Shown in pieces: positions 3,877-64,000 of a DNA stretch of 64,000 nt. Numbering within the stretch: position 1 is the stretch's first letter; each line of letters opens with the position of its first letter. The notes below the pieces were generated by a model. That model saw nothing but the letters and a program-made list of their open reading frames with translations, had not been told where the DNA came from and searched no databases. Origin of the DNA: SAR92 clade bacterium (GTDB taxonomy: Bacteria > Pseudomonadota > Gammaproteobacteria > Pseudomonadales > Porticoccaceae); NCBI GenBank assembly GCA_004211905.1, contig SHBP01000001.1, positions 317,589 through 381,588 of the forward strand. Direction: 5' to 3'. The position numbers were made by a program, and so were the translations under genes.

Positions 3877-5022
3877 TTAAAGTAACTCATGCAAATTACT
3901 TTCATCTTTTTTGCTAAATCCTTCGACAGGTCTGCCTGCAATAAAGTCACTTATTAACATCGCCAATTCAGGGCCCACCTCTTCCTGAACAAAATGACCC
4001 GCTCCTTCTAATGTAACGACCGTTGGATTGGGGATTCGATTCAAGAAATCATCTTTCATATTGATAGTAACTCTTTCTTCACCACCAAAAGCCACCAAAA
4101 AAGGCTTATCCCATTTCTCGTACACATTGACCCAATACTCTTCGTTCTCTGCTAGCTGCGTAGGTATCAAATAAGGCCAAACATGAGCCCCCGCTTTATA
4201 CTCCCCTGTAGGATAAGGCGCCTCATACGCATTTGCCTCTCTATCTGTGAGATTGATTCTCCCAAAAGTTTCGATAATACCAACGATATCCATATCTTGG
4301 GCGTGATAAGAGTGCGCTATCCATTTCGAAAACATTCTTACACCTTGAATTGGAGAAGGATTCTCTATAGCTAATGCATCCTCTGATGCGGTTTTGAGCT
4401 CTTCAAAAGTTACTTCACCATGCCACCAGACTAAAAGCTTAACAAAGCCCTCAAATAGCGTGCTACTAATCCCTGATCTTGCGATCATTCCGGTGTTAGA
4501 AACCACTACCCTTGAAAAACGATCAGGTAGTTCAGCAACAACCCGCAACCCCACCAGTCCGCCCCAATCCTGACCGAAGTGAGTCGCATCTTTTAGGTCT
4601 AACCTTGTCACAAGCTCTTTCATTACGTCGACATGATGTTGATAACTGTAATCATGCTTAGAAATGAATTTATCTGATTTTCCAAAGCCGACCATATCAG
4701 GGACGATGACCCTATGCCCTTCACTTGCGAGAACAGGAATCATTTTTCTATACAAATAACTCCAGGTGGGCTCTCCATGAAATAGAATGATTGGATCCGC
4801 ATCCCTTGGACCTTCATCAAGATAATGAATCCGCAAGCCATCAATAAAAATGTAATTTGGCTCAAAAGGGAACTCATGTAGATCCTTGAATCTTTCATCG
4901 GGTGTTCTTAGCACTCCTTTTTTAATAGTGTCATTGGATAATTCAGATTCGTTACCCAGAAGACAGGGAGAATTCAGAAGTGTCACAAAAATAAGTAATG
5001 CTGTTTTCAAATAAATATTCAT
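3877..5022 (-). CDS. Haloalkane dehalogenase (alpha/beta hydrolase) with predicted signal peptide
   Basis: LRTPDERF, FHGEPTWSYLYR, GQDWGG nucleophile, GAGHFVQEE base. Start placed at ATG 5022 (MNIYLKTALL...) downstream of GAGGAG, rather than the track start 5118. Confidence 0.85.
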   Translation of the reverse strand: MNIYLKTALLIFVTLLNSPCLLGNESELSNDTIKKGVLRTPDERFKDLHEFPFEPNYIFIDGLRIHYLDEGPRDADPIILFHGEPTWSYLYRKMIPVLASEGHRVIVPDMVGFGKSDKFISKHDYSYQHHVDVMKELVTRLDLKDATHFGQDWGGLVGLRVVAELPDRFSRVVVSNTGMIARSGISSTLFEGFVKLLVWWHGEVTFEELKTASEDALAIENPSPIQGVRMFSKWIAHSYHAQDMDIVGIIETFGRINLTDREANAYEAPYPTGEYKAGAHVWPYLIPTQLAENEEYWVNVYEKWDKPFLVAFGGEERVTINMKDDFLNRIPNPTVVTLEGAGHFVQEEVGPELAMLISDFIAGRPVEGFSKKDESNLHELL

Positions 5023-6681: not shown

Positions 6682-7172
6682 TGGAATCAGATGAAGAGCT
6701 GATAAGAAGAACGCTCGCCGGCGGTAACCATCATTATGGTGTTCTAATTCAACGGTATGCTGACTATTTATTTGGGTTGGGCATGCGATTGACCGCCGGT
6801 AATAGAGAACTTGCTGAGGACATCTCTCAGCAAAGTTTTCTTAAATCTTATACTTACCTAAAAAGTTTTGATGCTCGCAAAACCTACAAGCATTGGTTGA
6901 CAGGAATTGCCGTCAACTGTTTTAAAGATATACGTCTTAAAGAGCAGCGCTATGCTCCGCTAGATGACACCAATGAGGCAAGCTACTCGCCTCGTCTAGA
7001 GGAGAATTCTGACTTCTTTAATCTTATTCAACCTCTTGATGACAATGAAAAGATTATGTTCACGCTTAAATATGTATACGATTACCGAACTCAGGAAATC
7101 GCAGATGTTTTAGGCCTAAAGACTGGCACCGTAAAATCAAAAATAAGTCGCGCTTTGGAGAAATTAAAATGA
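6681..7172 (+). CDS. ECF-type RNA polymerase sigma factor
   Basis: AEDISQQSFLK, F/YKHWLTGIAVN (region 2); QEIADVLGLKTGTVKSKISRA (region 4). Confidence 0.9.
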   Translation: MESDEELIRRTLAGGNHHYGVLIQRYADYLFGLGMRLTAGNRELAEDISQQSFLKSYTYLKSFDARKTYKHWLTGIAVNCFKDIRLKEQRYAPLDDTNEASYSPRLEENSDFFNLIQPLDDNEKIMFTLKYVYDYRTQEIADVLGLKTGTVKSKISRALEKLK

Positions 7173-11029: not shown

Positions 11030-13042
11030 CTATTCCGCCGCGTCCTCCTTCAGATAGCGATCGAACCAATCGATAGTACGCTGCAAGGCGTCAATCTGGT
11101 TTTCTCGCTTTTGCCAACCGTGTCCTTCCTCGACGTAGATCTTAGAGTCGACCCTCTTGCCGGCCTTTTGCAAATACTCGACCACTTGCTCGGCCTCATA
11201 GGCGGGGACGCGAAGGTCGTTCTGACCGTGCAGCACAAGCAGCGGGGCCTTCACCTGGTCAAGATAAGTCAGCGGGCTGGTTCGATCATAGACTTCGGGA
11301 TGTGTCTCAGGCGATCCCAGCAGCCCGCGCTGATATTCGCGTAGGGCCGGCGAGCCTCGTTCCCACATGCTGCGCCAGTTGACGATGCCGTATAGCTCGA
11401 CCGATGCTGCCCAGAAATCGGGCATACGTCCAACTGCGATAAGGCTCATGTAGCCGCCATAGGACCCACCGGTTATACCGACCTTCTTCAGGTCACCATA
11501 ACCCGACGCGGCAACAAATTTTGCAGCCCATGCCTCGTCTTCCAGGTCGCGTCCGCCCAGATCGTAGCGGTTGGCCTCCATGAAGGCACGGCCATATCCG
11601 GTCGATCCGCGAACATTTGGGGCGATCACGATGTAGCCACGTGACGCGAGCGCCACTGCCGTCGCATCGAATGTATCGAAGGTCTGGCCGGTCGGTCCGC
11701 CGTGAGCGATGACAACGATTGGGGTGCTAGCATCCCGCTTGAGATTATAGGGCATCCACAGGATCGCGCTGATAACGGTACCGTCGGCGCTCTTGTAGCT
11801 GACGGTCTGGCTCGTCGGCAGATTGACCTCGTTCACGCTAGCAAGGCCAAGCCGGGTTATCCGACGGTTCACTCCGGTTGCGAGTTCGTGTGTCCAGTAA
11901 TCGAATGGGACGCTGGCCGAGGAATGCGGGAAAAGGATGTATTTCCCGTCAGGTGAGAACTGCGGTAAGTCGAACCAGGACGAAGCGGTCGTGCCTTTGG
12001 GAAGTTTTAGCGCGCGCGCCTTTCCCGCTTCGATGTCGTAGGCCAGCATTTCAATACTGCCATCGACATTGTTGATCACCAGCGCGGTCTTGCCGTCAGG
12101 CGAAATCCGACCGGCCTCTTGCGGCCATTGGCTTGGCACCATGAGACGGCGCTCGCCGGTCTTCAGATCGACAAGCACTGCCTGATTCACGCCATCAGGC
12201 GCCTCACTTGTCACCGACAAGAATCGATTGTCACTCGAAAATCCGACTGCCACGTCCAACTTGCCCTCGCCAGTCGCAATCATGCTTTTCTCGCCGGTCG
12301 CCACGTCGATCATCCAGATCGCGCCCGTCAGGATATCACCGCGATTAGCAATCAGCTTTGTACCGTCAGCGTTAAAACCGACCGGTGACCAGTAGATACC
12401 GGGGTCTTTGTCGCGGGTAAGTTGCCGGACCTCGCGGGTTGCAAGATCCAGCAGCGCGAGGTCGAAAGTGGGTGAAGCGGCTTCGCGGCGCACGAATGCG
12501 AGCACTTTGCTGTCAGGTGAAAAAACATACCTACCGGTTTCGGAAACGTCATCGGTCGATGTCAGATTGACCGCCTCACCACCACTGCCCGGCATCGCAA
12601 AGATGTCAAAAAGCTCGTTGCCACCGACATCGGATGCGTAAAGGATTGTCTTCCCGTCAGGCGATACCGTCGGAAAAAACGCTCTGTTTTCCGACTGATG
12701 CAGCTGCTGCGGAAACCCGCCTGCATGCGGGAACCGCCACAAATTCATCCGCCCCGTCAGATCGGACGAAAACACAACGTCATTCCCGTCCGGCGTCCAG
12801 GTAGCAAACCAGCTGGTTCGCAAAGAGAGCACATCCTCGACCGAAATCGGTTTGGTATCTGGGTTGGGGACCGAGTCAAGGCTGCCAGGATCGGTCAGTT
12901 CCCGCTCGGGGACTCCCGTCAATACCGCAACGCCCGGCCGGTTCGGATCAAGCGGGGCCTCCTGTGCGAGAAGCGGAGAGCAGAGAAAGCCCAGGGCCGC
13001 GATGGTCGCGACGAGATGCCGAAAAAAAGCTACGTTAAACAT
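11030..13042 (-). CDS. S9-family peptidase (beta-propeller plus alpha/beta hydrolase), secreted
   Basis: Signal peptide, PD40-like repeats, HGGP, PNVRGSTGYG, GGSYGG, HGQND, EGHG; GC-rich. Confidence 0.9.
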   Translation of the reverse strand: MFNVAFFRHLVATIAALGFLCSPLLAQEAPLDPNRPGVAVLTGVPERELTDPGSLDSVPNPDTKPISVEDVLSLRTSWFATWTPDGNDVVFSSDLTGRMNLWRFPHAGGFPQQLHQSENRAFFPTVSPDGKTILYASDVGGNELFDIFAMPGSGGEAVNLTSTDDVSETGRYVFSPDSKVLAFVRREAASPTFDLALLDLATREVRQLTRDKDPGIYWSPVGFNADGTKLIANRGDILTGAIWMIDVATGEKSMIATGEGKLDVAVGFSSDNRFLSVTSEAPDGVNQAVLVDLKTGERRLMVPSQWPQEAGRISPDGKTALVINNVDGSIEMLAYDIEAGKARALKLPKGTTASSWFDLPQFSPDGKYILFPHSSASVPFDYWTHELATGVNRRITRLGLASVNEVNLPTSQTVSYKSADGTVISAILWMPYNLKRDASTPIVVIAHGGPTGQTFDTFDATAVALASRGYIVIAPNVRGSTGYGRAFMEANRYDLGGRDLEDEAWAAKFVAASGYGDLKKVGITGGSYGGYMSLIAVGRMPDFWAASVELYGIVNWRSMWERGSPALREYQRGLLGSPETHPEVYDRTSPLTYLDQVKAPLLVLHGQNDLRVPAYEAEQVVEYLQKAGKRVDSKIYVEEGHGWQKRENQIDALQRTIDWFDRYLKEDAAE

Positions 13043-13094: not shown

Positions 13095-15293
13095 CTAATT
13101 CGCAGGTGTGCGGGGATCGAACCCGTCCATCAGCTTCTGGAGGAGGTAGACGGTCTGGAGCGCCGAATTGAAGGCTCGGCCCTCGTCATTTACCGCCATG
13201 CCGTGCCCCCCTTCGCGCGCCTCGTAGAACAGCGCCGGGTGCCCTTGGGCCATAAGCCGTGCGGCCATCTTGCGCGCATGACCAGGATGGACGCGGTCAT
13301 CGCGCGTGGACGTCATCAGCAGCATTTCCGGATAGTCACCGTCGGGCTCGATATTCTGGTACGGCGAATAGCGCAGCAGCGGCTCGGCCTCGGTGGGTAT
13401 CTCGGGATTACCGTACTCCGGCATCCAGCTCGCGCCGGCCAGCAGCTTGTGGAACCGCGCCATGTCTAGCAGCGGGACAAGCGAGATCGAAGCGCCGAAG
13501 AGATCCGGTCGCTGGGTCGCGAGTACGCCCGCGGTCAACCCTCCGTTCGAGCCACCGACGAATCCGATCCGTCCCGCCCGCGACAGGCCGCGCGCAATCA
13601 GATCCTCGGCCACCGCAGCGAAGTCGTCATAGGCGATCTGGCGCGTGGCACCACGCGCGGCGTTGTGCCAGGCCGGGCCGTATTCGCCTCCGCCGCGGAC
13701 GTTTGGAAGGACGAAGCGCCCGCCGCGTTCGAGCCAGATCTGATGCATAGGCCCGATGTATGGGACTTCGAAGCTGGGTAGCATGGGAATGCCGAACGCG
13801 CCATACCCGTACATCAGCGTTGGAGCGGCAGCATCCCACCCGCCTTTTTTGCCGACAACGAAATAGGGAACACGGGCCCCATCCTGAGTTTCGACGAAGA
13901 ACTGCTTGGTTTCGAAACCCTCAAGGTCAACCGCAGCCTCGGCCTCCTGCACCTTGGCGAGTTTACCCGCCTGAGAGAGCGCGAACATCGTCGGTACCGT
14001 GGTGAAATTCTCGAATTTGAGGAGCGCGCTGTCTTCCGAGGGATCCATGCTTGTCAGCAGCGTCAGCGTGCCGCCCTGCCGACCAGCGGGAACATTCACG
14101 TTATCGACCTGCCATTGACCATCCGCACCGCGCCGTGCGCGTTTCAGCGTCGAAACGACATTGTCCAACACGACGAGGTATGCACTGGTATCGAGGATCG
14201 CCGGTGGGCTAGCAAGCGGAAGCGCTTCGCTCGCATCGGGCGTGAAAACCGTGCGATAGGTGTCCCCATCCACATCACCCGCGAGGATCCTGGGAAGGTT
14301 TGCCGCGATGATGGAGCCTGCACTGAACACTTTGCCGCCAACATCGAAATCCGTGTCCAGCCGTAACAGCAGTTCATTGCCGATTCCGGTCAGACCCATA
14401 AAGGACGCCATGAGTTCCACCGGAAGGGGTAGGGTCTCGGGCGGCTGGCCGGACGCGACGCGCAGAACGGTCAGATCCGTAAAGCTTCGGGCTGCCAATA
14501 CCAGAAGCTCGCGTTGCGTATTGGTCTGAGCCAGGAAGGGCGCGAGTAGGAGATGATCGGAGGGAATGCTGTGCAGCACTTCCGCCTCGGAGACCCCGGT
14601 GCCGCGATGCCATTGTCGCAGAATGCGCGGATAGCCCGAAGTCGTTGCCTCGTCGGGTTCGAGCACGATGGAGATGGCCAGCGTATTCTCATCAACCCAG
14701 GCGATCATCTGTCGGGCAAGCGGTGTCCGGAACCCGTCCGGAACAAATTTCTTGGCCGCAAGATCGAATTCGCGCACGCTCACGGCATCGCTTCCGCCAT
14801 CGGACAACGGAATGAGCGCTTTCGCGCCGTCAGGCGAAAACCGGATCATCGGCGCATTTACATACCAGTTATGGCCTTCGGCTTCCGCCAATGCGTCGAT
14901 GTCGACAAGTGTCTCCCAGGCGGCCTCCCCAGCACCGAACGACGCCGTTCGGTTGCGCTGGAGGAGGCCTCTTGGATGGTCGGGCTCCTGAGCGATCCGA
15001 TAGACGAAGCCACTTGCCTGCGTAAGCATGTGCATCTTGGGAAGGCGGCCTTCGCTCTGATAGCTCGCCAAATATTCGGCCTTGAGCTGGTCGAAACGCG
15101 GGTCCGCCGCCAGTCGGGCAGCCGTGCGTTCGGACTGTTCTTCGGTCCAGCCAAGCGCACGATCCCCTTCGATCTCTTCCAGCCACAGATACGGATCTGC
15201 GGCATCAGATGCTAGGACAGAAAACGAATAGGTAATGCCTATTATCACACTTGCTCGGATTTTATTTCGAATAGTCAGAATATTTGGCATCAC
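13095..15293 (-). CDS. Prolyl oligopeptidase (S9A), secreted
   Basis: DPYLWLEE, NVRGGGEYGPAWH, GGSNGGL, EYGNP, DDRVHPGHARK, GGHG; GC-rich except the first ~30 codons. Confidence 0.9.
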   Translation of the reverse strand: MMPNILTIRNKIRASVIIGITYSFSVLASDAADPYLWLEEIEGDRALGWTEEQSERTAARLAADPRFDQLKAEYLASYQSEGRLPKMHMLTQASGFVYRIAQEPDHPRGLLQRNRTASFGAGEAAWETLVDIDALAEAEGHNWYVNAPMIRFSPDGAKALIPLSDGGSDAVSVREFDLAAKKFVPDGFRTPLARQMIAWVDENTLAISIVLEPDEATTSGYPRILRQWHRGTGVSEAEVLHSIPSDHLLLAPFLAQTNTQRELLVLAARSFTDLTVLRVASGQPPETLPLPVELMASFMGLTGIGNELLLRLDTDFDVGGKVFSAGSIIAANLPRILAGDVDGDTYRTVFTPDASEALPLASPPAILDTSAYLVVLDNVVSTLKRARRGADGQWQVDNVNVPAGRQGGTLTLLTSMDPSEDSALLKFENFTTVPTMFALSQAGKLAKVQEAEAAVDLEGFETKQFFVETQDGARVPYFVVGKKGGWDAAAPTLMYGYGAFGIPMLPSFEVPYIGPMHQIWLERGGRFVLPNVRGGGEYGPAWHNAARGATRQIAYDDFAAVAEDLIARGLSRAGRIGFVGGSNGGLTAGVLATQRPDLFGASISLVPLLDMARFHKLLAGASWMPEYGNPEIPTEAEPLLRYSPYQNIEPDGDYPEMLLMTSTRDDRVHPGHARKMAARLMAQGHPALFYEAREGGHGMAVNDEGRAFNSALQTVYLLQKLMDGFDPRTPAN

Positions 15294-19700: not shown

Positions 19701-19907
19701 TCATCCAATAATTTTTTTCAGCTCCTCTAAATGACGCTTGAAAGATTTTCTTCCCTCAGAGGTTAAGGATACCCAGGTCCGCTGGCGGGTAAATTCTGTC
19801 TTTTTAATCAGTTGCACATAGCTTGCATCTTCCAATACCTTTAAATGCTTTGAAAGCACTGAATCACTTACTTCAAGTTGTTCTTTAATAATCTGAAACT
19901 CCAGTTC
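19701..19907 (-). pseudogene. Winged-helix regulator remnant (5'-truncated, frameshifted)
   Basis: ELEFQIIKEQLEVSDSVLSKHLKVLEDASYVQLIKK...RTWVSLTSEGRK, then a frameshift near 19745 into FKRHLEELKKIIG*; no N-terminus. Confidence 0.7.
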
Positions 19908-19962
19908 CTATTAAGCATAAACCTGAAATTTTGAGAATATTAATTTTATTTTTATCAATCAT
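19885..19962 (-). pseudogene. 25-codon N-terminal stub starting 11 nt after att copy 1
   Basis: MIDKNKINILKISGLCLIGTGVSDY*; runs out of frame into the winged-helix remnant. Confidence 0.35.
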
Positions 19963-19973
19963 TTTCTTTCTAT

Positions 19974-20063
19974 TTATTCCCACTCAATAGTTGCAGATTT
20001 ACAGAGCCCTATAAACGAAGGGCTACAAGCACGAAAATAAAAGCGTGTAACTTTCGTGTAACT
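19974..20063 (-). repeat. guaA-3'-end-like attachment site, copy 1
   Basis: Minus strand TCT GCA ACT ATT GAG TGG GAA TAA (SATIEWE*); AGCCCT-ATAAACGA-AGGGCT palindrome; CGTGTAACT twice (20044, 20055). Confidence 0.8.
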
Positions 20064-20242: not shown

Positions 20243-20470
20243 ATGCTCATGGAAATTTGTATCACTTTAGATGTAGAAATGGCGAAAAAGAAGATATCTC
20301 TGAAAGAGCTGTCTGAAAAAATTGGAATTTCTATAACCAACTTGTCGCTACTAAAGACAGGCAAGGTTAAGGCTATTCGCTTTAGCACTCTGATGGCTAT
20401 ATGCCGTGAGCTTGATTGTCAGCCTGGCGATATTCTTGTTTACGTAAGTGATAATTCAGAAATAAGTTAA
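20243..20470 (+). CDS. XRE/Cro-like (YozG-type) HTH regulator
   Basis: LDVEMAKKKISLKELSEKIGISITNLSLLKTGKVKAIRFSTL.AIC..LDCQPGDIL. Confidence 0.9.
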   Translation: MLMEICITLDVEMAKKKISLKELSEKIGISITNLSLLKTGKVKAIRFSTLMAICRELDCQPGDILVYVSDNSEIS

Positions 20471-20522
20471 TGACATTTCATGATGAAGTGTAATTTAGAC
20501 AATTAAACTAGGAGGTTTAATT

Positions 20523-21131
20523 ATGCAGAATAAAGATTATTTATTACCCGGTGTTGCCGCAATATTCGTGGCGGTGATATCTCCTATCTACTGGCTTGGG
20601 ATGGCTGCATCTGTGGGCGATTCCGATGTGTTATGGCAAGACATGATGTCTTTGGGGTTTTCCGATATTCTGTTTGCTTCTATTCTTCTATTAACCATAT
20701 ATATCTATCTCAATCTAAAAAATATTCTCAATGAACAATTGAACTTTAATCATATTGATTTGTTGGTTTGGATTTATGCTGCTATCAATATCCTTTGGGT
20801 GAGCACCCTACTCCTTGATGTAGCTAGCGCTGTACTACCAGAAAATATCGTATCGCAGAACGAGGGCACCTTTTTAAATATCGGATTATCAATAGGCGTC
20901 GGTGCAATTGTCATATTAGGTATCATAGATTTGTTAATAGGTATTTTACTTCTAGCGAAATCAACTGAACTTCCTACCCTACTAAAGATTTTTGCCATTA
21001 TGTCAGTGATACAGGGCGTACTAGGTATAACAGTAGTTTTTGCGGCAACGTTAATCTTCATCTTCCCGATAACTATGATTATTTTGGCTATGTTTTTTCT
21101 ACGTAAACCAGAGTCTTTAGAACTCGTTTAA
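20523..21131 (+). CDS. Multi-pass membrane protein of unknown function
   Basis: 202 aa, about 6 hydrophobic segments, AGGAGG RBS, AT-rich. Confidence 0.7.
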   Translation: MQNKDYLLPGVAAIFVAVISPIYWLGMAASVGDSDVLWQDMMSLGFSDILFASILLLTIYIYLNLKNILNEQLNFNHIDLLVWIYAAINILWVSTLLLDVASAVLPENIVSQNEGTFLNIGLSIGVGAIVILGIIDLLIGILLLAKSTELPTLLKIFAIMSVIQGVLGITVVFAATLIFIFPITMIILAMFFLRKPESLELV

Positions 21132-30317: not shown

Positions 30318-30923
30318 TTAGCTGTCGGTAACTACATAGGGAGCCGCGAACCCTCCCAGAATAAAACTGACGGTATTGTCAATCAAGCGCTGTCTGCTGC
30401 GTCCCGATCGATTCACTTTTTCAGCAGCGGCAATAGAAGCCGCGGAGCCCATGTAGAGGAGATGCTCTGCCTGCTCTAACGTCATCGTACGATTCTCTTC
30501 AATGACTCTCTCGATTAAAGTTCGACCAATCTCTTTGTGGTTCCTCTTTATCGTTTTAGCAACTGCCTCTCTTAGATCAGCCTGACTGAGCAGCACATCT
30601 CGTACATTTCCAGATTCAGATTGCTCAAAGTTAACCTCAACAAAGACTCTTACAAGTTCCTCAAAACTTTGAGTACTGGCTACTTTAGCCCTAATCTTCA
30701 AACGAAAATCTTCTAGTTCCCGCAACAAAAGCTCTTTAAAGATCTCTTGCCGGGAGTCGAAATATTTATAGACCAATGGGTTGCTCACACCGGCTGCCTT
30801 AGCCAGAGTCTCCATCGTAAATCCTGCAAATCCCATATCTTCGATAATTGCCGCTGCCGTGTCCAGAAGCTGTGATCGTCTTCCTTCCTTCGACAAACGG
30901 GTTCGAGGTTTTTGTGCCATCAA
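30318..30923 (-). CDS. TetR/AcrR-family regulator
   Basis: RTRLSKEGRRSQLLDTA...FTMETLAKAAGVSNPLVYKYF. Confidence 0.9.
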   Translation of the reverse strand: MMAQKPRTRLSKEGRRSQLLDTAAAIIEDMGFAGFTMETLAKAAGVSNPLVYKYFDSRQEIFKELLLRELEDFRLKIRAKVASTQSFEELVRVFVEVNFEQSESGNVRDVLLSQADLREAVAKTIKRNHKEIGRTLIERVIEENRTMTLEQAEHLLYMGSAASIAAAEKVNRSGRSRQRLIDNTVSFILGGFAAPYVVTDS

Positions 30924-30991
30924 TGTACTACCTTGCCTATGTGCACCCCGAAGAGGCGCACTGAAGCGTTCATTCTAACCGCTATTTTGGC

Positions 30992-32524
30992 TTATGTCGC
31001 CTTGGCTTTAGGCTGTTGTTGATTTCGCTTATGCTCTTCGATGCCAGCAATGATTTTGATATGCATGGAATGGGTCAAATGATATTTCCCATAAAAGAAT
31101 ACGGCGACAAACGACGCTATACCCATAATGGGCCCAGCCAGTATACCCATTCGAAATAACACGTCTGCGTCAACAGCTCCCGGAACCGCTAGCGATGGGA
31201 AACGAACAAATTTGTCCAGCCCTACGCCACCCACCAAGTGACCAAAGGAAAACGAAGCTTTAGCAAAAAAGGCTCTTGCAGAATAGAATAACCCTTCCTG
31301 GCGCAAACCTGTCTCCAACTCGTTTTCATCTACCACATCACCAATCATAGACATCATAGCGACAGCACCAAGGCCAATCACAAACGCGAATACGCCTGCG
31401 TTGCAGAGCAGCAGTGGTAGCAATGTAGCGCTATGATTGTCAGGCATTAAATCGAGCAATCTCAAATCCACAACCAGTTGAGCAGTAATCGCCATACAAA
31501 TCAGAGAGAAGATTACCACAGGCTTGCGATCGAACTTGCGCATTAACACAGGTGAAATTAAAGCACCAAATAAGGCACAGGGTGCCGACACTAGTCCAAA
31601 CCAGCGAATTTGTCCCGGCACGAGCTCCCAAAAGTAAGTGTTCATAAAAACACCTAAAGTATCGTAGATTCCGCTAGCAATCATAAAGAAAAAGTAACCG
31701 GCAAGTAGTACGACATAATTGCGGCACTTTAATGTGAGCAATATCTCTTTAAAGAAACCTTTAAAAGAGAGCGGTTGTTGCTTTGGTGGCTCGGATAGTG
31801 ATGGCACATGCTTATACGTGCCTGCAGCGGTAGTCCAAATCGCCACTAGAACCAAACTACAAGCTAACAATATCAAAGGAGCATAGGAGGCTGCATTTAA
31901 GTGCCCCGGAACTACCACGCCATCAACAGCTCTTATATGGTCGCCATCAAAGAATACGCCCCAAGCCAAAAATCCAAACAAGGCACCAGTTACATAGGAA
32001 AATGCAGAATTGGCACTAAACAATCTGGAACGTTGATTTTGGTTCTTTGACATTTCACCCCCCAGGGCGAGATGCGGAATTGAATAGAGTGTTAAGAATA
32101 CCCGACTAAAAATAGTGCAGGAGGCTAACCATGCGAACAGGACATAATTAGTGAAATTATCTACTTCATTCAGAATGGCTTCAGGCGGATTGAAAATTGC
32201 GTAGATTGCCAGCGCCAAGGGTATGGGCGCAGCAAATAGAAATGGATGTCGTCGTCCGTGCTTGGATTTCCATTTGTCTGAAATTATCCCAATCAATGGG
32301 TCGGTGATCGCATCAACCAGCAGGGCCACGAAGATCGCAATACCGATGAGGGTATTCGATAGTCCAATTACCTGGTTATAAAAAATAGTAATAAAGGTAT
32401 TGAACAGCCCCAAGTAAACTGCCTCACCTGCGGCCCCAATACCAAATGCGGCGACTGACCAACGAGATAGTTTTTCGTCGATCTTTGTTCTTAGACCAGT
32501 ATCCTGCGTCTTAATAGGAGTCAT
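30992..32524 (-). CDS. MFS transporter (GPH/MelB-like)
   Basis: DAITDPLIG.ISD....GRRHPF, IPHLALG.E, D..DENEL.TG.RQEG.F. Confidence 0.9.
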   Translation of the reverse strand: MTPIKTQDTGLRTKIDEKLSRWSVAAFGIGAAGEAVYLGLFNTFITIFYNQVIGLSNTLIGIAIFVALLVDAITDPLIGIISDKWKSKHGRRHPFLFAAPIPLALAIYAIFNPPEAILNEVDNFTNYVLFAWLASCTIFSRVFLTLYSIPHLALGGEMSKNQNQRSRLFSANSAFSYVTGALFGFLAWGVFFDGDHIRAVDGVVVPGHLNAASYAPLILLACSLVLVAIWTTAAGTYKHVPSLSEPPKQQPLSFKGFFKEILLTLKCRNYVVLLAGYFFFMIASGIYDTLGVFMNTYFWELVPGQIRWFGLVSAPCALFGALISPVLMRKFDRKPVVIFSLICMAITAQLVVDLRLLDLMPDNHSATLLPLLLCNAGVFAFVIGLGAVAMMSMIGDVVDENELETGLRQEGLFYSARAFFAKASFSFGHLVGGVGLDKFVRFPSLAVPGAVDADVLFRMGILAGPIMGIASFVAVFFYGKYHLTHSMHIKIIAGIEEHKRNQQQPKAKAT

Positions 32525-32607
32525 GAATCGTAATCAGCCCTTTTTTTGAATGGCAAGTACCGCCACATTCAAGTATCGAAATTAGCCTAGCATTTTTCAA
32601 ACCGAAA

Positions 32608-33768
32608 CTATGCCAAAGACATCAAGGCCTGCATGTTGCCATGATAAAACTTACTCATGGTGGCTTCATCACAGCCTTCCATTGTAGCTTCGAACTTGCT
32701 GATAGGATCTGACCCACCCTCTGGATGCGGATAGTCCGATGCGTAGCAAATCATATCCGGACTGGTATTTTCAATGATCCATCCAACGGGTTCACCGGCA
32801 AAGGGCGAAAACTTAAGACATCGTCTCGCTGTATCTGAGGGTTTTTCCACAAACTCTCGACGCGGCACATAAGCTCCGTAGGTAAAGTCTAGCGACTTTA
32901 GCCAGGATGGAACCCAAAATGCACCATGCTCCATACACATGCCTCGTAGACTGGGGTGACGATCAAAGACGCCGTCAAAAATTAGCGCCGACAGAAATAG
33001 TTCAGCCGAATTTTTTATCGTTATCAGACCGAGCTCGCCTGCAGGCGCATCGCCACCCAGCGCAATAGTATTCTTGCCATTGCGCTTAAAGCTTTTTGGC
33101 ACAGCTTCATAATGACCATTGGCGGCCACATGTATTCCAAAGGGTACCCTCTGCTCTACAAAACCTGCCCAGACAGGGTCAAAGTCTGGATGAGCAAAAC
33201 TAATCTTGTCATCGTTGGGCTCATTGGTGTCAATCATAAAGGTATAACAACCGTCATCGAAGCCCTGTTTCATTAGCTCCAGCGCCCTCTCTGGCCCTAG
33301 GGTATAGGGTAAATACCCAATGGCAAGCAAGCGATCATCATGGGCACAAAAGTCAGCCATAGCCTTATTTAGGGTACGAGCGCCTGCATAGAGTGCGTCC
33401 ATATCACCCACATGGGCCACCTGATGAAATGAGAAAGTGGGTAGCACCCATTGCTTCTCATAACCAAACAGATCCAGTGCATGGGAGCGCTCTTGAGGGT
33501 CAAATGCGCCAATTCGGGACCAACCACCCAGGTTGTTGCTGACAATAATATCCTCGCATTCTTGCTTAACGGTGGCATCATGCTTGCGCCGCTCGAACAG
33601 CTCTACGCCGTCATCATATTTTTGCCTATCAATTGGTAGCTCTGTTTGATCATCCATTTTTTGCAGCAGTTCTATATCAGCTTCTCTGGCCGCCTTTATT
33701 AGAAAGTCATCTAGCTCTATAACATGACTGTCGGCATCAATGATCTTGCGGTGTTGTGCGTAACTCAT
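32608..33768 (-). CDS. Amidohydrolase_2-family metallohydrolase
   Basis: IDADSH, GVFDRHP.L, YASDYPHPEG. Confidence 0.9.
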   Translation of the reverse strand: MSYAQHRKIIDADSHVIELDDFLIKAAREADIELLQKMDDQTELPIDRQKYDDGVELFERRKHDATVKQECEDIIVSNNLGGWSRIGAFDPQERSHALDLFGYEKQWVLPTFSFHQVAHVGDMDALYAGARTLNKAMADFCAHDDRLLAIGYLPYTLGPERALELMKQGFDDGCYTFMIDTNEPNDDKISFAHPDFDPVWAGFVEQRVPFGIHVAANGHYEAVPKSFKRNGKNTIALGGDAPAGELGLITIKNSAELFLSALIFDGVFDRHPSLRGMCMEHGAFWVPSWLKSLDFTYGAYVPRREFVEKPSDTARRCLKFSPFAGEPVGWIIENTSPDMICYASDYPHPEGGSDPISKFEATMEGCDEATMSKFYHGNMQALMSLA

Positions 33769-58282: not shown

Positions 58283-59758
58283 TCAACGCTGGGAGGTTTT
58301 TTCTAACTCCTTCAAAATATCAAGGTGTTTGGCTCGAGTAAGCCGATACCGCGCATAAAATGGCAGCGCACAAAAGCCTGCGATGCACATGATTGGTCCT
58401 GCGAATAAACCCAAACGCCAGATGACATCAGCGTCGACTTCACCAGGCACCGCATCAAAGGGAAAAACAATATACACATCTAGAATTATGCCACCAAAAA
58501 AGTGACCCGCTGAGTTGGATGCTTTTGCGAAGAAAGCGCGCGCTGAATAGATCAAGCCTTCCTGACGCAGACCGAAAAGCAACTCGTTTTCATCCGCTAT
58601 GTCACCCAAGATCGACATCATCGCAACGGCTCCCGCGGCGGCGCACATCACCGAAACCATTCCGTTAAACATTATTATTGGGAGCAAATATTCAGATCCA
58701 TTGGCGGGCATCAAATCGAATAAGCGCAGAACTAAGGGTATTGGACCAATTATCAATAAACCAAGAAGCCCACCGATCAGCACCGGCTTACGGTCAAATT
58801 TTCTCATCAATCTAGGAGACGCAGTCGCACCGATGATAATGGCGGGGACTCCCACCAGGCCGAACCATTTGATTTGCTCAGGTTTAAATTCCCAAAAATA
58901 GGTTGCAATAAAGACCGACAAGGTATCACTAAGCCCAACTGAAATCATGAGCAAGAAAAATCCAATCATCAAAAAAGTGTAGTTGGGATTAGCGAAAACG
59001 CCGACCATCTCTCGATAGAAACTCAAGAGCGATCTTCGCGCGTCACTCTTAGCTACCGAACTTAAATAGGGCACGCGATCCAGCGTACCAAGAGCACTAA
59101 GGTTGATCATCACTAAGATAATCCCGCAGGCGGTTAGAACCACAGGTGGATACGCCGATGCATCTAGGTGTTTAGGCACGACGGACCCGTCTGCCAATAG
59201 GCTTTCGCCACTCAGAAAAAAGCCCCAGACTGAGAAAGAAAATAGCGCGCCTGATACATATCCAATGATCGCGTTTGAACTGAACAGCCTTGAGCGCTCA
59301 TTGGGGTCCTTGGCCAACTCAGCGCCTAATGCATGATGCGGGATGGTATACAGCGTGACAAACACGCGCCCGCATATAGTCCAAACAGCTAACCAGGCAA
59401 ACAGCCATATCTGATTGGGTTCACCTGCAACGCCCCCCGTTAGAAAATCCGGTGGACTGAAAATTGCGTACAGAGAGACAGCGAGGGGAATAGGCGCGGT
59501 AAAAAGAAAGGGGTGGCGTCTGCCTAACCGCGAACGCCAGCGATCAGAAATCATCCCAACCATAGGGTCGGAGATAGCGTCGCCGATCGTAGCAAGCATG
59601 ATCGCAGTGCCTATCAGCGAATTGGAAAGACCTATTGCCTGGTTGTAGTAAATGACGATAAAGGTGTTAAACATGCCGAGGAAAACAACCTCTCCCACCT
59701 CCCCGATTCCATAAGCTAGCGTAGTCCTGAATGGCAAAGGTGCTCGTGTAGTTTCCAT
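58283..59758 (-). CDS. MFS transporter (GPH/MelB-like)
   Basis: DAISDPMVG.ISD....GRRHPF, IPHHALG.E, DIADENEL..G.RQEG; paralog of 30992-32524. Confidence 0.9.
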   Translation of the reverse strand: METTRAPLPFRTTLAYGIGEVGEVVFLGMFNTFIVIYYNQAIGLSNSLIGTAIMLATIGDAISDPMVGMISDRWRSRLGRRHPFLFTAPIPLAVSLYAIFSPPDFLTGGVAGEPNQIWLFAWLAVWTICGRVFVTLYTIPHHALGAELAKDPNERSRLFSSNAIIGYVSGALFSFSVWGFFLSGESLLADGSVVPKHLDASAYPPVVLTACGIILVMINLSALGTLDRVPYLSSVAKSDARRSLLSFYREMVGVFANPNYTFLMIGFFLLMISVGLSDTLSVFIATYFWEFKPEQIKWFGLVGVPAIIIGATASPRLMRKFDRKPVLIGGLLGLLIIGPIPLVLRLFDLMPANGSEYLLPIIMFNGMVSVMCAAAGAVAMMSILGDIADENELLFGLRQEGLIYSARAFFAKASNSAGHFFGGIILDVYIVFPFDAVPGEVDADVIWRLGLFAGPIMCIAGFCALPFYARYRLTRAKHLDILKELEKTSQR

Positions 59759-60324
59759 TTGGCCTCTCTGCTACTGGTTGCTAAATCGGTTAACGCTAGT
59801 ATTTTTCACTGCGCTTCGTCGGAAAGGTGAATTGCTAATTACGTCACTATTAGTAACCACATCAAACATTAACAGCCCCTTATTACGCCATTTATGGCGT
59901 CAGTTTTTCTTCTCTTCAATGAGAGTTACACCCTCACTGACACGATCGCAGCGCGCGCGAAGCATCTATAAATGGCCGTGCACTAATCTTCACTATTTTA
60001 CTGAAGTTATAATAGAGAAGAAAAAATTGCAAGAGGTATTAGGCACTTCGTTCTTGAGGTGCCTCGCCATACTGTTGTGCAAATATGCCATCGCTTTTTC
60101 GCAATGCCTAAAACTCAGCAGCAGACTATCCCCAGTAAAAATAGCGTGCTAAATGCTAAAAAGTCCCTACTCAGTTCCTCTGTTGCTCAAATAAAGTACT
60201 GAGTATTTAAAGGAGCCCAAAAGAGATCGGTAGTGGCAACGGCTGCAAAAAATACATACGCACCCTTTACTTTTAGTTTAGTGTTTATATAATAGTGTAA
60301 ATTCAGAAGACAAGGAACACGAGG

Positions 60325-61503
60325 ATGAGTACACAGCAATCACACCGCGAAGGTAGAATCATTCATGACGCAGACAGTCACATAATCGAATATCCTGGGT
60401 GGCTGGAGAGTTATTCCAGCGAATACGTTAAAGCCAACCTTAAGCCCAGCCGATTAACGACAGACAATCCATTATTTAAGCGAATTATAGATCAGGCCGA
60501 TAAGCGTCTGGCAGGCAATGATCCGGAGCTGACAGAAACGTTGAAATCGAACATCTTCGGCGCGCGGGAAAAGCTCAATATGTGGGCAGCCTTCGGAGCG
60601 ACCAAGAAGGCAGAAAGAAGTGAATCACTGGATATAATGGGTGTTAGCTCGCAGCTGATCTTTCCCAGCATCGCGATGGCGCGTTTTTCTCGCACCCCTG
60701 ATATGGACTTGATGTACGGCGGCGCGGACGCCTTGAATCGTGGCATGGCAGACTTTTGTGCTGACGATCCTCGCATGCTGGCAGTGGGCCATGTACCCCT
60801 TAATGATCCATTGCGCGCACAGGATTGTCTTAAAAAAGCGCTGAAGCTTGGCATTCGCTCAATCTGGGTCATTGCAGATTCAGTCGAAGGCCGCGCCCCT
60901 TCTCATCTGGACTACGACCCTCTCTGGGCGATGATGGAGGAAGCCGGAGTGGCTGTCACCCTGCACATCGGTAGTGGGGTAAATATGCCTCCGGAGTATA
61001 TGAACACCGGTGAAGAGCGTGAGCTGAAAGGGAACCCATTCAATATAGAAAGCACCAAAGCTCATGACATACCTGTATTGCACCACGCCATAGAGCGCTG
61101 GCTAACCTGCATGATCTACCATGGTGTTCTGGAGCGCTTTCCGCGCCTCAAAGTCGGCATTATCGAATTGGGCGCCAATTGGCTTCCCACCACACTCGCC
61201 AATTTAGACATTGGCCGTTTTCATTTGGGGAAGTTTGACACGAGCTTAGACAAGCTTTCACTAAAACCATCAGAGTATATTCACAGACAGGTTCGCGTCG
61301 CGCCCTTGCATATGGAAGACGCCGGTTGGATTTTACGCAATGTTGGCAAAGACATTCTAATGTTCAACACAGACTATCCTCACCCCGAGGGTGGCAGCGA
61401 CCCCTTCGGTGACTTTGAACGTAGCCTCAACGCCGTAGACGCTACCCCAGAGGAATTGGACAACTTCTACAGTAAGAACTTCGAATTTTATATGGGCCTG
61501 TAG
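60325..61503 (+). CDS. Amidohydrolase_2-family metallohydrolase
   Basis: IHDADSH, LHIGSG, FNTDYPHPEG; close paralog of 21429-22616. Confidence 0.9.
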   Translation: MSTQQSHREGRIIHDADSHIIEYPGWLESYSSEYVKANLKPSRLTTDNPLFKRIIDQADKRLAGNDPELTETLKSNIFGAREKLNMWAAFGATKKAERSESLDIMGVSSQLIFPSIAMARFSRTPDMDLMYGGADALNRGMADFCADDPRMLAVGHVPLNDPLRAQDCLKKALKLGIRSIWVIADSVEGRAPSHLDYDPLWAMMEEAGVAVTLHIGSGVNMPPEYMNTGEERELKGNPFNIESTKAHDIPVLHHAIERWLTCMIYHGVLERFPRLKVGIIELGANWLPTTLANLDIGRFHLGKFDTSLDKLSLKPSEYIHRQVRVAPLHMEDAGWILRNVGKDILMFNTDYPHPEGGSDPFGDFERSLNAVDATPEELDNFYSKNFEFYMGL

Positions 61504-61514
61504 TACTTCCCTAA

Positions 61515-61549
61515 TCGCGCGCGGCCAGCAGAGACTGGTCGCCGCGCGA
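61515..61549. terminator. GC-rich hairpin between convergent genes
   Basis: TCGCGCGCGGCCAG-CAGAGA-CTGGTCGCCGCGCGA. Confidence 0.5.
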
Positions 61550-61557
61550 ATTCACTG

Positions 61558-62151
61558 TCAGGTTTTAAAGGCCTCTACACCGTTCAGAATAAAACTGACG
61601 GTATCCTCCACCATTTTTTTCCGGCTACCACCATATCTGGCATAGTGCCTAGCAGCTTCGATAGAAGCACCGGATGCTAGGGCGATGACATGACCAGCTT
61701 GGGAGGGTGTAAGATGGTACATCTCTTTCACAGTAGCCACCAGAAACTGCCCAGTTTTGCGTAAATCATCTTTCTGTCTCTCTTTGTTTACTTCTTGTAG
61801 TTCCGGCTGCGCGCCTAAAATATGAGCAATTCCGCCCAGAGTAAACTGTTTGAAATTGAGGTTAACAAAAACTCTCACCACATCCTCAAAATTTTCTGCT
61901 ACAGATAACTCCTCTCTGACACTAAGGGCATAACTCTCATACTCTCTCGCCCAAAGATCCTGTAAAAGCTCCAGCCGAGTATCAAAGTACTTGTATATCA
62001 ATGGATTGCTAACACCAGCTTCGAAAGCTAGGGTGTCCATAGTGAAACCAGAAAAGCCCTTCTTCAAAAGCAGTTCTCTGGCAGTATCCAGCAATTGATT
62101 TCGACGGCCCTCAGGAGAAAGGCGAGTGCGCTTATTGCCACTCATAATCAT
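61558..62151 (-). CDS. TetR/AcrR-family regulator
   Basis: RTRLSPEGRRNQLLDTA...FTMDTLA.EAGVSNPLIYKYF. Confidence 0.9.
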   Translation of the reverse strand: MIMSGNKRTRLSPEGRRNQLLDTARELLLKKGFSGFTMDTLAFEAGVSNPLIYKYFDTRLELLQDLWAREYESYALSVREELSVAENFEDVVRVFVNLNFKQFTLGGIAHILGAQPELQEVNKERQKDDLRKTGQFLVATVKEMYHLTPSQAGHVIALASGASIEAARHYARYGGSRKKMVEDTVSFILNGVEAFKT

Positions 62152-62159
62152 GTTTCCTT

Positions 62160-62258
62160 TTAATTTAATAAGCTTTGGTTATTAGCAACGAATGCTATAA
62201 AAGAATATCCTATTGCGCCTAATGTTAGAAAAATTAGATACTTTTTTTGTCTTTTCAT
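62160..62258 (-). pseudogene. 32-codon signal-peptide-like stub starting 1 nt after att copy 2
   Basis: ...GAA TAA A ATG; MKRQKKYLIFLTLGAIGYSFIAFVANNQSLLN*. Confidence 0.5.
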
Positions 62259-62259
62259 T

Positions 62260-62344
62260 TTATTCCCACTCAATAGTAGACGCTTCTGAAACCCTTATAA
62301 AAAGACGGTTACAGCCAGATAGAAAGTAGTTTGTCACGACTGTT
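62260..62344 (-). repeat. guaA-3'-end-like attachment site, copy 2
   Basis: Minus strand TCT ACT ATT GAG TGG GAA TAA (STIEWE*); degenerate ATAAA-centred palindrome; AAAGTAGTTTGTCACGACTGTT at 62323. Confidence 0.85.
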
Positions 62345-62391
62345 TTATTATTTTGTCTACCATAACCCCAATTGCTCCAGTTTCACTGGTT

Positions 62392-63822
62392 TTAGTTGCT
62401 TGATTCAATAGATATTATAGAATAAAGAGATGCATCAATTCCTGCCTTGTAATCAGCAAAGGTAAAAGGCACCGGTATGTCAGGTTCAAGAGATCCTACA
62501 GAGGTAGGATATTTAAAATCTGTCCAATAACATTGGATCCAATCTTCGCAACCATATAGTTGATCATGCAATCCTCTTGCAGCTGTCATTCCAATACCTG
62601 AATTAGGAAGAATAAAAGCATTGGTCTCCCCCCAACTCAAAGGACTATCTCCAATTCTACGACCCACAATAATTAGTTCATTATGTAGAGCTTCTTTAAG
62701 AAACCCTAGTGAGCTAATACCTGCTGAGAAAGTTTCATGACCAGTTATGGCGTAAACCCTTGAGCTCTCTGGTATTAGCTCTGGGATCTCAAACATTAGA
62801 TCAACTGTTTTTGTGTAGTCACCCCCACCATTAAAACGTTGATCAAAAATTAATACTTCTGGTTTGAATGAAGAAATTTCTTGTCTGATCTTTTTATTAA
62901 ATTCTGAAATACTCATTTGCTGGCCATCGTTATTTTGGCGGTATTGAATATAAAGCATTCCAAGATCACTGAGTCGACTTAATTGAAACTCATCATTCGT
63001 TTTTAAATAAAGTGGATCATAGTTTGTATCATTAGAAAAACTGATAAATTGCTTGTTATGATCATGATCGAATTGAGGCATTAACCACACCCAAGGAGAT
63101 TGTATGTGCCTATCCTTTTGAGGAGGTATTGCTTTAATTTGAAACGCTTCAACACTGCCTTCATTATTAATGGTCGTCACATCCAAGTTAAGCTTATTGT
63201 CTATAAATCCCAGCTCAAAAAGGAATGCTGTGTTTTGAATTAAGAATGGTAAGGCGTATGCAACAAAACCACTATCCTCGCCACCATAATATCCTCTGAA
63301 AGCATCTTTAATTACCTCAATATCGGCATTACCAATATGAGTAACTCTAGCCCCTAGCAAGCTTGCATATTCGTTAGTTGTAGCAACTATATGATAGCCG
63401 TCATCAAACCAATATCCCTGATAAGGCATAGATGGGTAGCGCTTGGCCCTTGAACCATTCCAAACATTGGAATGACCGTTTTCTCCTAGTGCAACTATTT
63501 CGCTTATTGCCAGCTCAAATCTCGCTTGAGAGAGTTTATCTACCTCCTTCCTCAATTTATTAATTTTACTTAAAGCTATACCTCTTGCTCTAAAATGAAA
63601 GCTTCGATCATAACCTCTTACATAATTTTCAAAATACTCTAAATCCTGCAAGCGGGCTTCTTTCTCATTATTTGGAGTAGGAAAATTTGCATTAGGTGCA
63701 TCAGGATAAAACAGCAGGTTTCTTGTTAACTCGGGAATTCCAATGAAACCAATCAACAAAAATATCGCTAAAGTAAAAATTAAAGCAATATTCTTTTTAC
63801 TTATTTTTGAATTCTTATTCAA
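62392..63822 (-). CDS. S41-family peptidase-like exported protein
   Basis: N-terminal TM/signal, D.H-like NGHS motif, IFDQRFNGGGD, TFSAG, IIVG...G; TTG start 1 nt after the att-core TAA. Confidence 0.75.
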   Translation of the reverse strand: MNKNSKISKKNIALIFTLAIFLLIGFIGIPELTRNLLFYPDAPNANFPTPNNEKEARLQDLEYFENYVRGYDRSFHFRARGIALSKINKLRKEVDKLSQARFELAISEIVALGENGHSNVWNGSRAKRYPSMPYQGYWFDDGYHIVATTNEYASLLGARVTHIGNADIEVIKDAFRGYYGGEDSGFVAYALPFLIQNTAFLFELGFIDNKLNLDVTTINNEGSVEAFQIKAIPPQKDRHIQSPWVWLMPQFDHDHNKQFISFSNDTNYDPLYLKTNDEFQLSRLSDLGMLYIQYRQNNDGQQMSISEFNKKIRQEISSFKPEVLIFDQRFNGGGDYTKTVDLMFEIPELIPESSRVYAITGHETFSAGISSLGFLKEALHNELIIVGRRIGDSPLSWGETNAFILPNSGIGMTAARGLHDQLYGCEDWIQCYWTDFKYPTSVGSLEPDIPVPFTFADYKAGIDASLYSIISIESSN

Positions 63823-63823
63823 T

Positions 63824-63908
63824 TTATTCCCACTCCATAGCTTGAAAACCTGTAACCCCTATAAACGAGGGGTTACAGAGAGATAAAAAGTAGTTTGTCA
63901 CGACTGTT
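63824..63908 (-). repeat. guaA-3'-end-like attachment site, copy 3
   Basis: Minus strand GCT ATG GAG TGG GAA TAA; perfect palindrome CTGTAACCCCT-ATAAACG-AGGGGTTACAG (63850-63878); AAAGTAGTTTGTCACGACTGTT at 63887. Confidence 0.85.
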
Positions 63909-63946: not shown

Positions 63947-64000
63947 TCATACCCATTGGGAATCAGCCACAGTGGCAATTATCGCATCCGCTGCTCGCTC
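63947..64000 (-). CDS. 3' end of an ORF entering from outside the window (possibly a tyrosine integrase)
   Basis: ERAADAIIATVADSQWV*; only 17 residues visible. Confidence 0.25.
   Translation of the reverse strand, partial: ERAADAIIATVADSQWV

Follow-up and report, generated by a model that had tools for sequence, protein, structure and literature searches.

The window, a 64,000-nucleotide stretch of DNA from a SAR92 clade bacterium of the Porticoccaceae (GenBank assembly GCA_004211905.1, contig SHBP01000001.1, positions 317,589 to 381,588), carries short repeats that look like the last codons and stop codon of guaA, and on the minus strand each repeat is followed by an open reading frame (ORF). 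The subject of this report is these repeats, the gene cassettes that they bound and the arrays of such cassettes behind guaA in related genomes. The 12-mer GAGTGGGAATAA is present in three exact minus-strand copies at 19974-19985 (copy 1), 62260-62271 (copy 2) and 63824-63835 (copy 3), and a fourth match, having one mismatch, lies at 62132. Shuffled sequence gave a mean of 0.27 matches, and four or more were reached in 0 of 100 shuffles. Copy 3 reads ATG GAG TGG GAA TAA A TTG, in which the TAA is a guaA-type stop codon and the TTG starts an ORF of 476 aa (62392-63822). Copy 2 reads ATT GAG TGG GAA TAA A ATG, the ATG being the start of a 32-codon ORF (62160-62258), whereas at copy 1 ATT GAG TGG GAA TAA is separated by 11 nt from the ATG of a 25-codon ORF (19885-19962). 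This arrangement of core and start codon, which an earlier note on the same DNA had described, matches the sequence at all three copies.

Arms and cores of the guaA-like junctions

The shared repeat is longer than the core, about 85 nt before each stop codon being alignable among the three copies. The real guaA end is not among the three copies, because what stands before each core is a noncoding element arm instead of the coding sequence of guaA. On the minus strand each copy has one or two GT(G/T)ACA(A/C)(A/G)C motifs that end exactly 57 nt ahead of GAGTGG. The direct repeats are followed by a T-rich stretch, then by an inverted repeat with an A/T-rich center and finally by ACTATT-GAGTGGG-AATAA. 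The attachment (att) junction at copy 3 (63824-63908, minus strand), which is near-identical in the relative L010 discussed below, is composed of the arm repeat GTGACAAAC, an inverted repeat having a 12-bp stem (CTGTAACCCCT..AGGGGTTACAG) and the core TATG-GAGTGGG-AATAA. The copy 2 junction (62260-62344, minus strand) has the same arm repeat, a degenerate inverted repeat and the core TATT-GAGTGGG-AATAA. The latter core is also that of the copy 1 junction (19974-20058, minus strand), which has two direct repeats, GTTACACG(A/C), and the inverted repeat TAGCCCT..AGGGCT. Scans of the window with Rfam and for tRNAs found nothing, and therefore the arms are not a known RNA family and the window contains no tRNA anchor.

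A pattern scan modeled on the arm plus core layout gave 19 loci in one-genome-per-species contigs and at least 120 in metagenome contigs. The total set comprises 142 loci, designated by L-numbers, which come mostly from SAR92, Porticoccaceae, SAR86 and unclassified marine Gammaproteobacteria, with some from freshwater Betaproteobacteria. These loci hold at least 34 real guaA ends and at least about 200 internal copies of arm plus core, the copy 1 arm type being the commonest (36 copies). The direct repeats are of the GTTACAAAC type, two per arm, at a constant distance of 57 nt to the core. Over 67 distinct arm types the consensus is ttacAAA..gTtAcAAaC, a T-run, AA.CC.TT.TTTTA.AAGGGTTT and ACTATT; in 17 of the 67 an IHF-like motif, YAANNNNTTGWTW, occupies a constant position (-42 to -40). 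In the same consensus TATT and AATA form an inverted pair flanking the 7-bp GAGTGGG, and the core lies outside the arm inverted repeat. We interpret this layout as a lambda-type attachment-site arm beside its core. The core equals that published for GIsul2 at guaA, 5'-GAGTGGGA-3', the sequence at which the GIsul2 integrase targets the guaA 3' end. That integrase excises and integrates an integrase-less unit in trans, as demonstrated experimentally (PMC9376610).

Two further properties of the junctions were observed. At internal copies (69 arm clusters from L001-L141 and the window) the guaA frame upstream of the core stop codon is open for a median of 30 codons versus 10 in the sole usable control frame, and in 30 of the 69 arm types an ORF of at least 20 codons that has a start codon ends at the core TAA (25, 25 and 38 codons for the window arms). 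Constraint on the motifs could account for the open frame, as could translation of a leader. Immediately past the guaA stop codon (in L003, L005, L009, L026, L040, L141 and others) there is a recurrent left-end motif, (T/G)CGTGTTCCTCGCAAACCCCCATTCTTAAAGGGTTTAGCA, with the inverted repeat AAACCC..GGGTTT, and related forms (..CAACCCCCATTCCTAC..) are found downstream of many internal cores. This motif may represent the guaA terminator, or else the left arm of a single type of element.

The guaA anchor, the cassettes and the integrases

A real guaA is present in L010 (CP179212.1, Porticoccaceae bacterium nBUS_09), which is about 95% identical to the window over the 476-aa gene and both flanking junctions. 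In L010 guaA ends ...SSKPPATIEWE* and lies 4.4 kb upstream of the 476-aa cassette shared with the window. The L010 cores are at 6914 (the real guaA), 3981, 3159, 2491 and 927, and the order on the sense strand is guaA, a four-gene unit, core, a DUF4386 gene, core, a gene encoding a 183-aa membrane protein, core, the 476-aa gene, core, the 32-codon ORF and a TetR gene. The window and L010 diverge upstream of the copy 3 arm, and therefore another unit stands there in the window. An arrangement of guaB-guaA followed by an array is also found in L003, L005, L009, L016 and L144. The earlier note had taken the cores for copies of the guaA 3' end produced by site-specific integration, and the real guaA upstream of the same cassettes in L010 bears this out. 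Core-bearing guaA-end repeats, the hallmark of a GIsul2-type insertion, thus number three in the window, and L010 has the real guaA plus four copies.

The 476-aa gene is a single-gene cassette that begins with a TTG codon 1 nt past the core TAA. The encoded protein has an N-terminal membrane anchor or signal-like segment and is a distant relative of the S41 peptidases. It has 130 homologues, the remote ones with PF03572; Pfam gave no match to the 476-aa protein itself. The cassette (about 1.56 kb) is found with identical ends behind at least four different upstream sequences, the junction being at the core. In the window, L001 and L002 it stands behind three different arms, and similarity stops at the core. 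The metatranscriptome data are assembled contigs that have no strand information and may include DNA carry-over; among them one has the cassette directly behind ...SKPPATIEWE*, one has it behind a variant guaA tail, ...YDISSNLSVTMEWE*, and in one the cassette is absent. In the DNA metagenome with the best match to the window, contig depth was 25-57 over the cassette versus 14-19 over its flanks. Both metagenome and metatranscriptome contigs break at cores and then run into other neighbors. Only about 18 nt of homology is present upstream of the shared-cassette junctions, a length too short for RecA-dependent exchange, which points to site-specific recombination as the likely cause of the changes in cassette position. 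Sharing extends across groups, in that a two-gene cassette (membrane protein plus HTH_34 regulator) having the same arm is common to SAR86-type and Porticoccaceae genomes.

The guaA variant was seen in metatranscriptome run X27 at the site corresponding to window position 63840, where the C-terminus before the 476-aa cassette is ...YDISSNLSVTMEWE instead of ...YDISSKPPATIEWE. Recombination at the core may swap the last GuaA residues.

The units between consecutive cores (n = 95) have a median length of 1073 nt, with quartiles of 668 and 1606 nt and a range of 221-42286 nt, the largest being the window unit that extends from copy 2 to copy 1. Genes are oriented with guaA in 53 units and opposite to it in 15, and most units lack an integrase. 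Repeats of the anchor 3' end bound the cassettes and the content differs between the window and L010, the pattern of an additive island.

The integrases were located by inspection of the sequence downstream of real guaA ends. They had escaped a strict HxLRH motif scan (the sequences are YSFRH or YGIRH instead), and a looser motif scan picked up only small second recombinases. In L131, L029 and L144 the first gene after the real guaA, in the same direction, encodes a full-length tyrosine recombinase of 427-443 aa, which matches PF00589 above the curated cut-off together with Phage_int_SAM_5 (PF13102); NCBIfam gave weak Xer-type matches only. Repeats of the GTTACA type lie between the guaA stop codon and the integrase start. 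In the SAR86-like L144 the integrase element is 6.8 kb with cores at 9776 and 16608, and in L143 an integrase element lies behind an internal core with sugar-metabolism genes upstream. Integrase remnants are found behind guaA in L023, L085 and L098 and behind an internal core in L016, and no integrase is present at the array heads of L003, L005, L009, L010 and L016. A profile of the integrase family gave 2146 relatives, many of them from Polynucleobacter, Limnohabitans and metagenome-assembled Betaproteobacteria. With the L131 integrase as tblastn query, a collection of 72,556 plasmid records, which may or may not include an intact GIsul2 integrase, gave one weak match (24.9% identity, E = 7e-4), which lies beside a predicted gyrA resistance gene.

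Integrase-bearing elements also encode a second, small tyrosine recombinase of 189-221 aa (L131 6421-7086, L114 6156-6821, L121 680-1345, L053 7032-7697, L143 11329-11898 and L144 11967-12542), the L131 copy of which matches PF00589 with E = 9e-28. This protein might have a directionality or resolution function.

Lead genes, start codons and transcription

The 32-codon ORF at copy 2 (minus strand) encodes a small membrane protein, MKRQKKYLIFLTLGAIGYSFIAFVANNQSLLN, and its ATG lies 1 nt past the core TAA. The earlier note had the start position right and was mistaken in viewing the ORF as a gene cut at 32 codons. Of 18 copies, 16 have 32 codons, and a divergent one of 33 codons keeps the frame despite nine amino-acid changes; the consensus is MKRQKKYLIFLTL(G/C)AIGY(S/F)FIAFVANNQSLLN. 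Truncation was seen only in the copy next to guaA in L010, which has 20 codons, and in some loci the ORF is found directly behind the real guaA. It therefore reads as a conserved small gene rather than a remnant. A 221-nt mini-cassette consisting of only this ORF, an arm and a core was seen in L049, L056, L063, L068, L078, L110, L125 and L135, and its positions include the one immediately after the real guaA.

At copy 1 the 25-codon ORF (minus strand) is what is left of the 5' end of a gene for a winged-helix (HTH_34) regulator, degraded and shifted in frame; the two-thirds of that gene on the 3' side (ELEFQIIKEQLEVSDSVLSKHLKVLEDASYVQL...KKIIG*, 19701-19893, minus strand) are in another frame. 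The intact 94-aa parent (PF13601) is found at L010 4173-4457 and also in L003 and L009, as the second gene of its cassette. Copy 1 thus heads a pseudogene, and not one of an exported protein. Of the two short ORFs, for which full-length parents had been expected, the one at copy 1 has such a parent in this regulator, and the one at copy 2 is a small gene of full length. In L010 (about 4457-4480, minus strand) the boundary of a 164-aa gene and the HTH_34 gene has the sequence TATTTAGTAGGGAATCAAAAATAATG, which resembles the core TATTGAGTGGGAATAAA. Recombination at such a pseudo-core could explain the fusion of window copy 1 to the regulator gene without the membrane-protein gene.

A TetR-family regulator gene (PF00440; 61558-62151, minus strand) is the first long gene of the 42-kb unit that ends at copy 1. 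Its start region, ATGAGTGGCAATAAG (62132-62146), resembles a degenerate core and the arrangement is the same in L002 and L010. The start reads ATG AGT GGC AAT AAG (M S G N K) and differs from the core TATTGAGTGGGAATAAA by one deletion and two substitutions. In its +1 frame the core likewise gives SGNK, and LSGNK... is found at the head of further lead ORFs. Conserved also in L002 and L010, the start of TetR may have originated within a former core.

Clustering of the first 60 nt after the stop codon gave 119 distinct cassette ends, and the first ORF of at least 60 codons was located after each. The distance from stop to start was 0-5 nt at 17 ends (14.3%), 6-30 nt at 19, 31-100 nt at 24 and 101-400 nt at 37, whereas 22 had no such ORF within 400 nt. 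Among 603 ordinary long ORFs of the same loci 54 (9.0%) were at 0-5 nt (odds ratio 1.7, Fisher p = 0.09). The enrichment of start codons behind cores that the earlier note had predicted was not supported: tight junctions are recurrent, yet not clearly commoner than the ordinary operon-like spacing of compact genomes. The A-ATG arrangement of copy 2 recurs behind an arm and core in the cultured SAR92 strain HTCC2207 (L007). A start of lead ORFs within the core itself, at its TTG (frame +1) or its GTG (frame +2), was considered and rejected as a peculiarity of the cassette ends; 28 of the 119 ends are open through the core, and the values for the TTG and GTG frames (9.2% and 14.3%) are close to those of ordinary gene ends (10.6% and 13.1%). 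Cassettes with longer leaders often have their own AAGGAG, whereas those at 0-5 nt have only the GGAG or GGGA of the core, 8-12 nt upstream. The upstream "gene" at internal copies is only an arm ORF of 25-38 codons, and a putative coupling to translation of guaA is possible only for the first-position unit.

In the 100 nt ahead of the lead genes a crude scan found no promoter-like sites. Junctions are spanned by RNA contigs: one runs from the upstream unit through the copy 3 hairpin and core into the 476-aa gene, others, about 14-19 deep, lead from the arm across the core and the small ORF into TetR, and contigs of guaA extend at least 255 nt past the stop codon into other first cassettes. In L010, over four runs, RNA contig depth was about 100-500 in guaA, about 17-43 just past the stop codon and 0-8 in the first cassette gene. 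The read-through from guaA that had been proposed thus finds agreement in the contigs that cross junctions but not in the depth profile. Transcription across junctions plausibly exists, with read-through from guaA being weak at best.

The copy 3 arm, folded as RNA, has an energy of -23.2 kcal/mol (z = -2.8). For copies 2 and 1 the fold does not surpass that of shuffled sequences, and two of the three window copies lack a stable fold. A role of the arm as terminator was rejected, as a consensus scan found none at arms, only copy 3 is strong, and a T-run follows the stem in a minority of arm types. The palindrome had been thought to silence displaced units, a proposal at odds with the findings that the only strong hairpin precedes an intact gene and that an RNA contig crosses it. 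The proposed decay of lead genes with distance from guaA also failed to appear. The sole truncated copy of the 32-codon ORF adjoins guaA (in L010), and therefore the gradient is the reverse of that proposed, and the 476-aa gene is intact at the inner array positions of the window, L010, L001 and L002.

Other features of the window were recorded. The 42-kb unit contains two paralogous modules, 30318-33768 and 58283-62151, each having a TetR regulator, an MFS_2 transporter and an Amidohydro_2 enzyme, and joined by DNA repeats of 73-86% identity (repeat families D3 and D13). In an AT-rich stretch adjoining the copy 1 arm (20243-21131, plus strand) two ORFs lie in succession, the first of 75 aa and by eye like a helix-turn-helix protein of the XRE type, the second for a multi-pass membrane protein of 202 aa having no Pfam match. 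The segment 11000-15300 has 58-62% G+C versus about 45% around it, and contains a gene of the S9 prolyl-oligopeptidase family (13095-15293) and a 670-aa ORF (11030-13042); it is probably a separate foreign insertion.

Origin of the array and known systems

We interpret the window as the distal part of an additive island at the guaA 3' end in SAR92-related Porticoccaceae, built by tyrosine-integrase recombination in the core, and give this reading a probability of about 0.75. A tyrosine integrase would recombine in the 7-bp overlap GAGTGGG, flanked by TATT and AATA, that covers the last codons and stop codon of guaA. As recombination would fall within the guaA tail, each unit would end with its own arm and a fresh copy of that tail. 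Integration would occur preferentially at the true guaA end, giving the order guaA, unit, core, unit, core and so on, with units mostly of about 1 kb, lacking an integrase and oriented like guaA. The integrase-bearing elements (about 6.8 kb) behind guaA in some genomes would supply the enzyme in trans. Lead genes would abut the core because AATAA is followed immediately by element-specific DNA and the genes of these genomes are closely packed. A ribosome-binding site may be provided by the purine-rich core, whose GGAG or GGGA lies 8-12 nt upstream, and transcription would enter the lead genes from upstream of the core.

Several observations weigh against this interpretation. A Pfam scan of about 45 window ORFs gave no integrase, and none was found in L010 or in the flanks of most marine loci; mobilization in trans is therefore something that we infer. 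The window ends at 64000, exact look-ups of two of its proteins gave no match by which it could be extended, and its guaA is placed by synteny with L010 only, while the unit upstream of copy 3 is not the same in the window and L010. Both strands of the 42-kb unit carry genes, its size is far above that of the rest, and it may be an old island or a former chromosomal flank rather than a cassette. A recognizable left (P) arm is missing in most cassettes, and a lambda-type integrase may be inefficient on substrates that lack it. The limits of the metatranscriptome contigs given above also count here.

The earlier note had instead proposed an integron-like process, in which a new unit inserted immediately after the guaA stop codon owes its expression to read-through and translational coupling, whereas displaced units are silenced by the palindrome and decay. 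The 1-nt distance from stop to start in two of the three copies, the 17 of 119 ends at 0-5 nt, the RNA contigs that place the 476-aa cassette directly behind real guaA or that extend at least 255 nt past the guaA stop, and the pseudogene at copy 1 are all in keeping with such a process. However, enrichment of tight junctions is weak (14.3% versus 9.0%, p = 0.09) and is absent for through-core ORFs, the 32-codon ORF is kept at full length with its sole broken copy beside guaA, and in four contexts an inner position is occupied by an intact 476-aa gene. Moreover, the strong hairpin precedes that intact gene and is crossed by an RNA contig while copies 2 and 1 fold like shuffled sequences, the first L010 cassette gene has an RNA depth of 0-8 versus about 100-500 in guaA, and the integrase element of L143 is behind an internal core. 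We regard this process as quite unlikely. A functional integron analogue in plankton (SAR92, SAR86, Polynucleobacter and Limnohabitans) can also be envisioned, in which cassettes of about 1 kb, lacking an integrase and a promoter and having only a P'-type arm and core, are preferentially caught at the genuine guaA stop codon with helpers of about 7 kb acting in trans, the core also provides the ribosome-binding and start context, and the guaBA operon drives expression. We offer this scheme tentatively and consider it improbable.

Could the array have arisen by accretion and decay only, the units being remnants of full integrase islands after deletions and the small units never having been mobile? 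The integrase remnants beside cores in L016, L023, L085 and L098 suggest so, as do the 42-kb unit with its mixed gene orientation and high-GC segment, and copy 1, which resembles a deletion product given the core-like sequence at the boundary of the L010 164-aa and winged-helix genes. Such a history does not account for a cassette of about 1.56 kb that has identical ends behind at least four upstream units and directly behind guaA, for the 221-nt mini-cassette in many contexts, or for the two-gene cassette and arm common to SAR86-type and Porticoccaceae genomes where the homology of about 18 nt is too short for RecA. We consider it doubtful as the sole explanation. Finally, local duplication or homologous recombination of the guaA terminator region, with no site-specific recombination, would be consistent with the 85 nt or so of shared sequence and with a hairpin near the stop codon, but is highly improbable given the arm-type layout (tandem repeats, fixed spacing, IHF-like motif and an inverted pair around a 7-bp overlap), the integrases beside guaA with the same repeats in the other arm, and the identity of the core to an experimentally proven integrase target.

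The additive guaA island that we favor bears on bacteria (SAR92, Porticoccaceae and SAR86) that are abundant marine heterotrophs and in which the gain of flexible genes is poorly known. A guaA-anchored array having a defined att architecture and a matching integrase family is a concrete and testable route of gene gain, and the shared core ties this route to the clinically known GIsul2. Our literature search found no published description of guaA arrays in SAR86, SAR92 or Polynucleobacter.

The array resembles GIsul2 in its location at the guaA 3' end, in having the same core, in the position of the integrase as first gene after guaA in intact elements, and in the extra att copies that delimit integrase-less units; the integrase-less CR2-sul2 unit carried by GIsul2 is bounded by a third att copy (PMC9376610). 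It differs in having marine and freshwater plankton hosts, in carrying metabolic or uncharacterized cargo rather than resistance genes, and in its many units of 0.2-1.5 kb in series. Additive flexible genomic islands, to which tycheposon-shaped islands are related, consist of variable cassettes in a row, divided by repeats of the last 20 nt or so of the anchor gene, and their units are reported to measure 330 bp to 42 kb (PMC10872708; bioRxiv 10.1101/2020.12.28.424599). These islands are likewise found in streamlined planktonic bacteria, mostly lack an integrase and vary in content between close strains. The islands described there are anchored at tRNA genes, whereas here the anchor is a protein-coding gene and the repeat carries a stop codon, and therefore the junction can act as an intergenic translation signal. 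The GTTACAAAC-repeat arm architecture was not found described in the accessible parts of PMC10872708 or bioRxiv 10.1101/2020.12.28.424599.

Like integron cassettes, the units are small, mostly single-gene and one-way, often lack a promoter, have the site at the unit 3' end and are lined up behind one site, and their expression from an upstream promoter is plausible. Unlike integrons, no IntI-type integrase lies by the site, guaB and guaA being upstream so that a housekeeping gene takes the place of the integrase, and there are lambda-like arm repeats and a duplex core rather than folded attC palindromes, which are imperfect, have RYYYAAC and GTTRRRY (the core) at their boundaries and recombine at GTT. 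In integrons a short ORF of attI1 has been reported to aid translation of cassettes that have no ribosome-binding site. Coupling and decay away from guaA would, if true, be an interesting parallel to the integron Pc, but the junctions are not set apart from the tightly packed genes here. At the 3' end of fda in Streptococcus thermophilus, cis-mobilizable elements (CIMEs), which are bounded by att sites and lack recombination genes, lie in tandem with integrase-bearing integrative and conjugative elements and can be mobilized by the integrase of the neighbor. The guaA arrays share with these the tandem arrangement of integrase-less, att-bounded elements and integrase-bearing ones at the 3' end of a housekeeping gene, whereas CIMEs are few and large and here up to five att copies lie within 8 kb, with units as small as 221 nt. 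The guaA array falls within known kinds, those of the guaA-specific integrase islands (GIsul2) and the additive flexible islands (PMC10872708).

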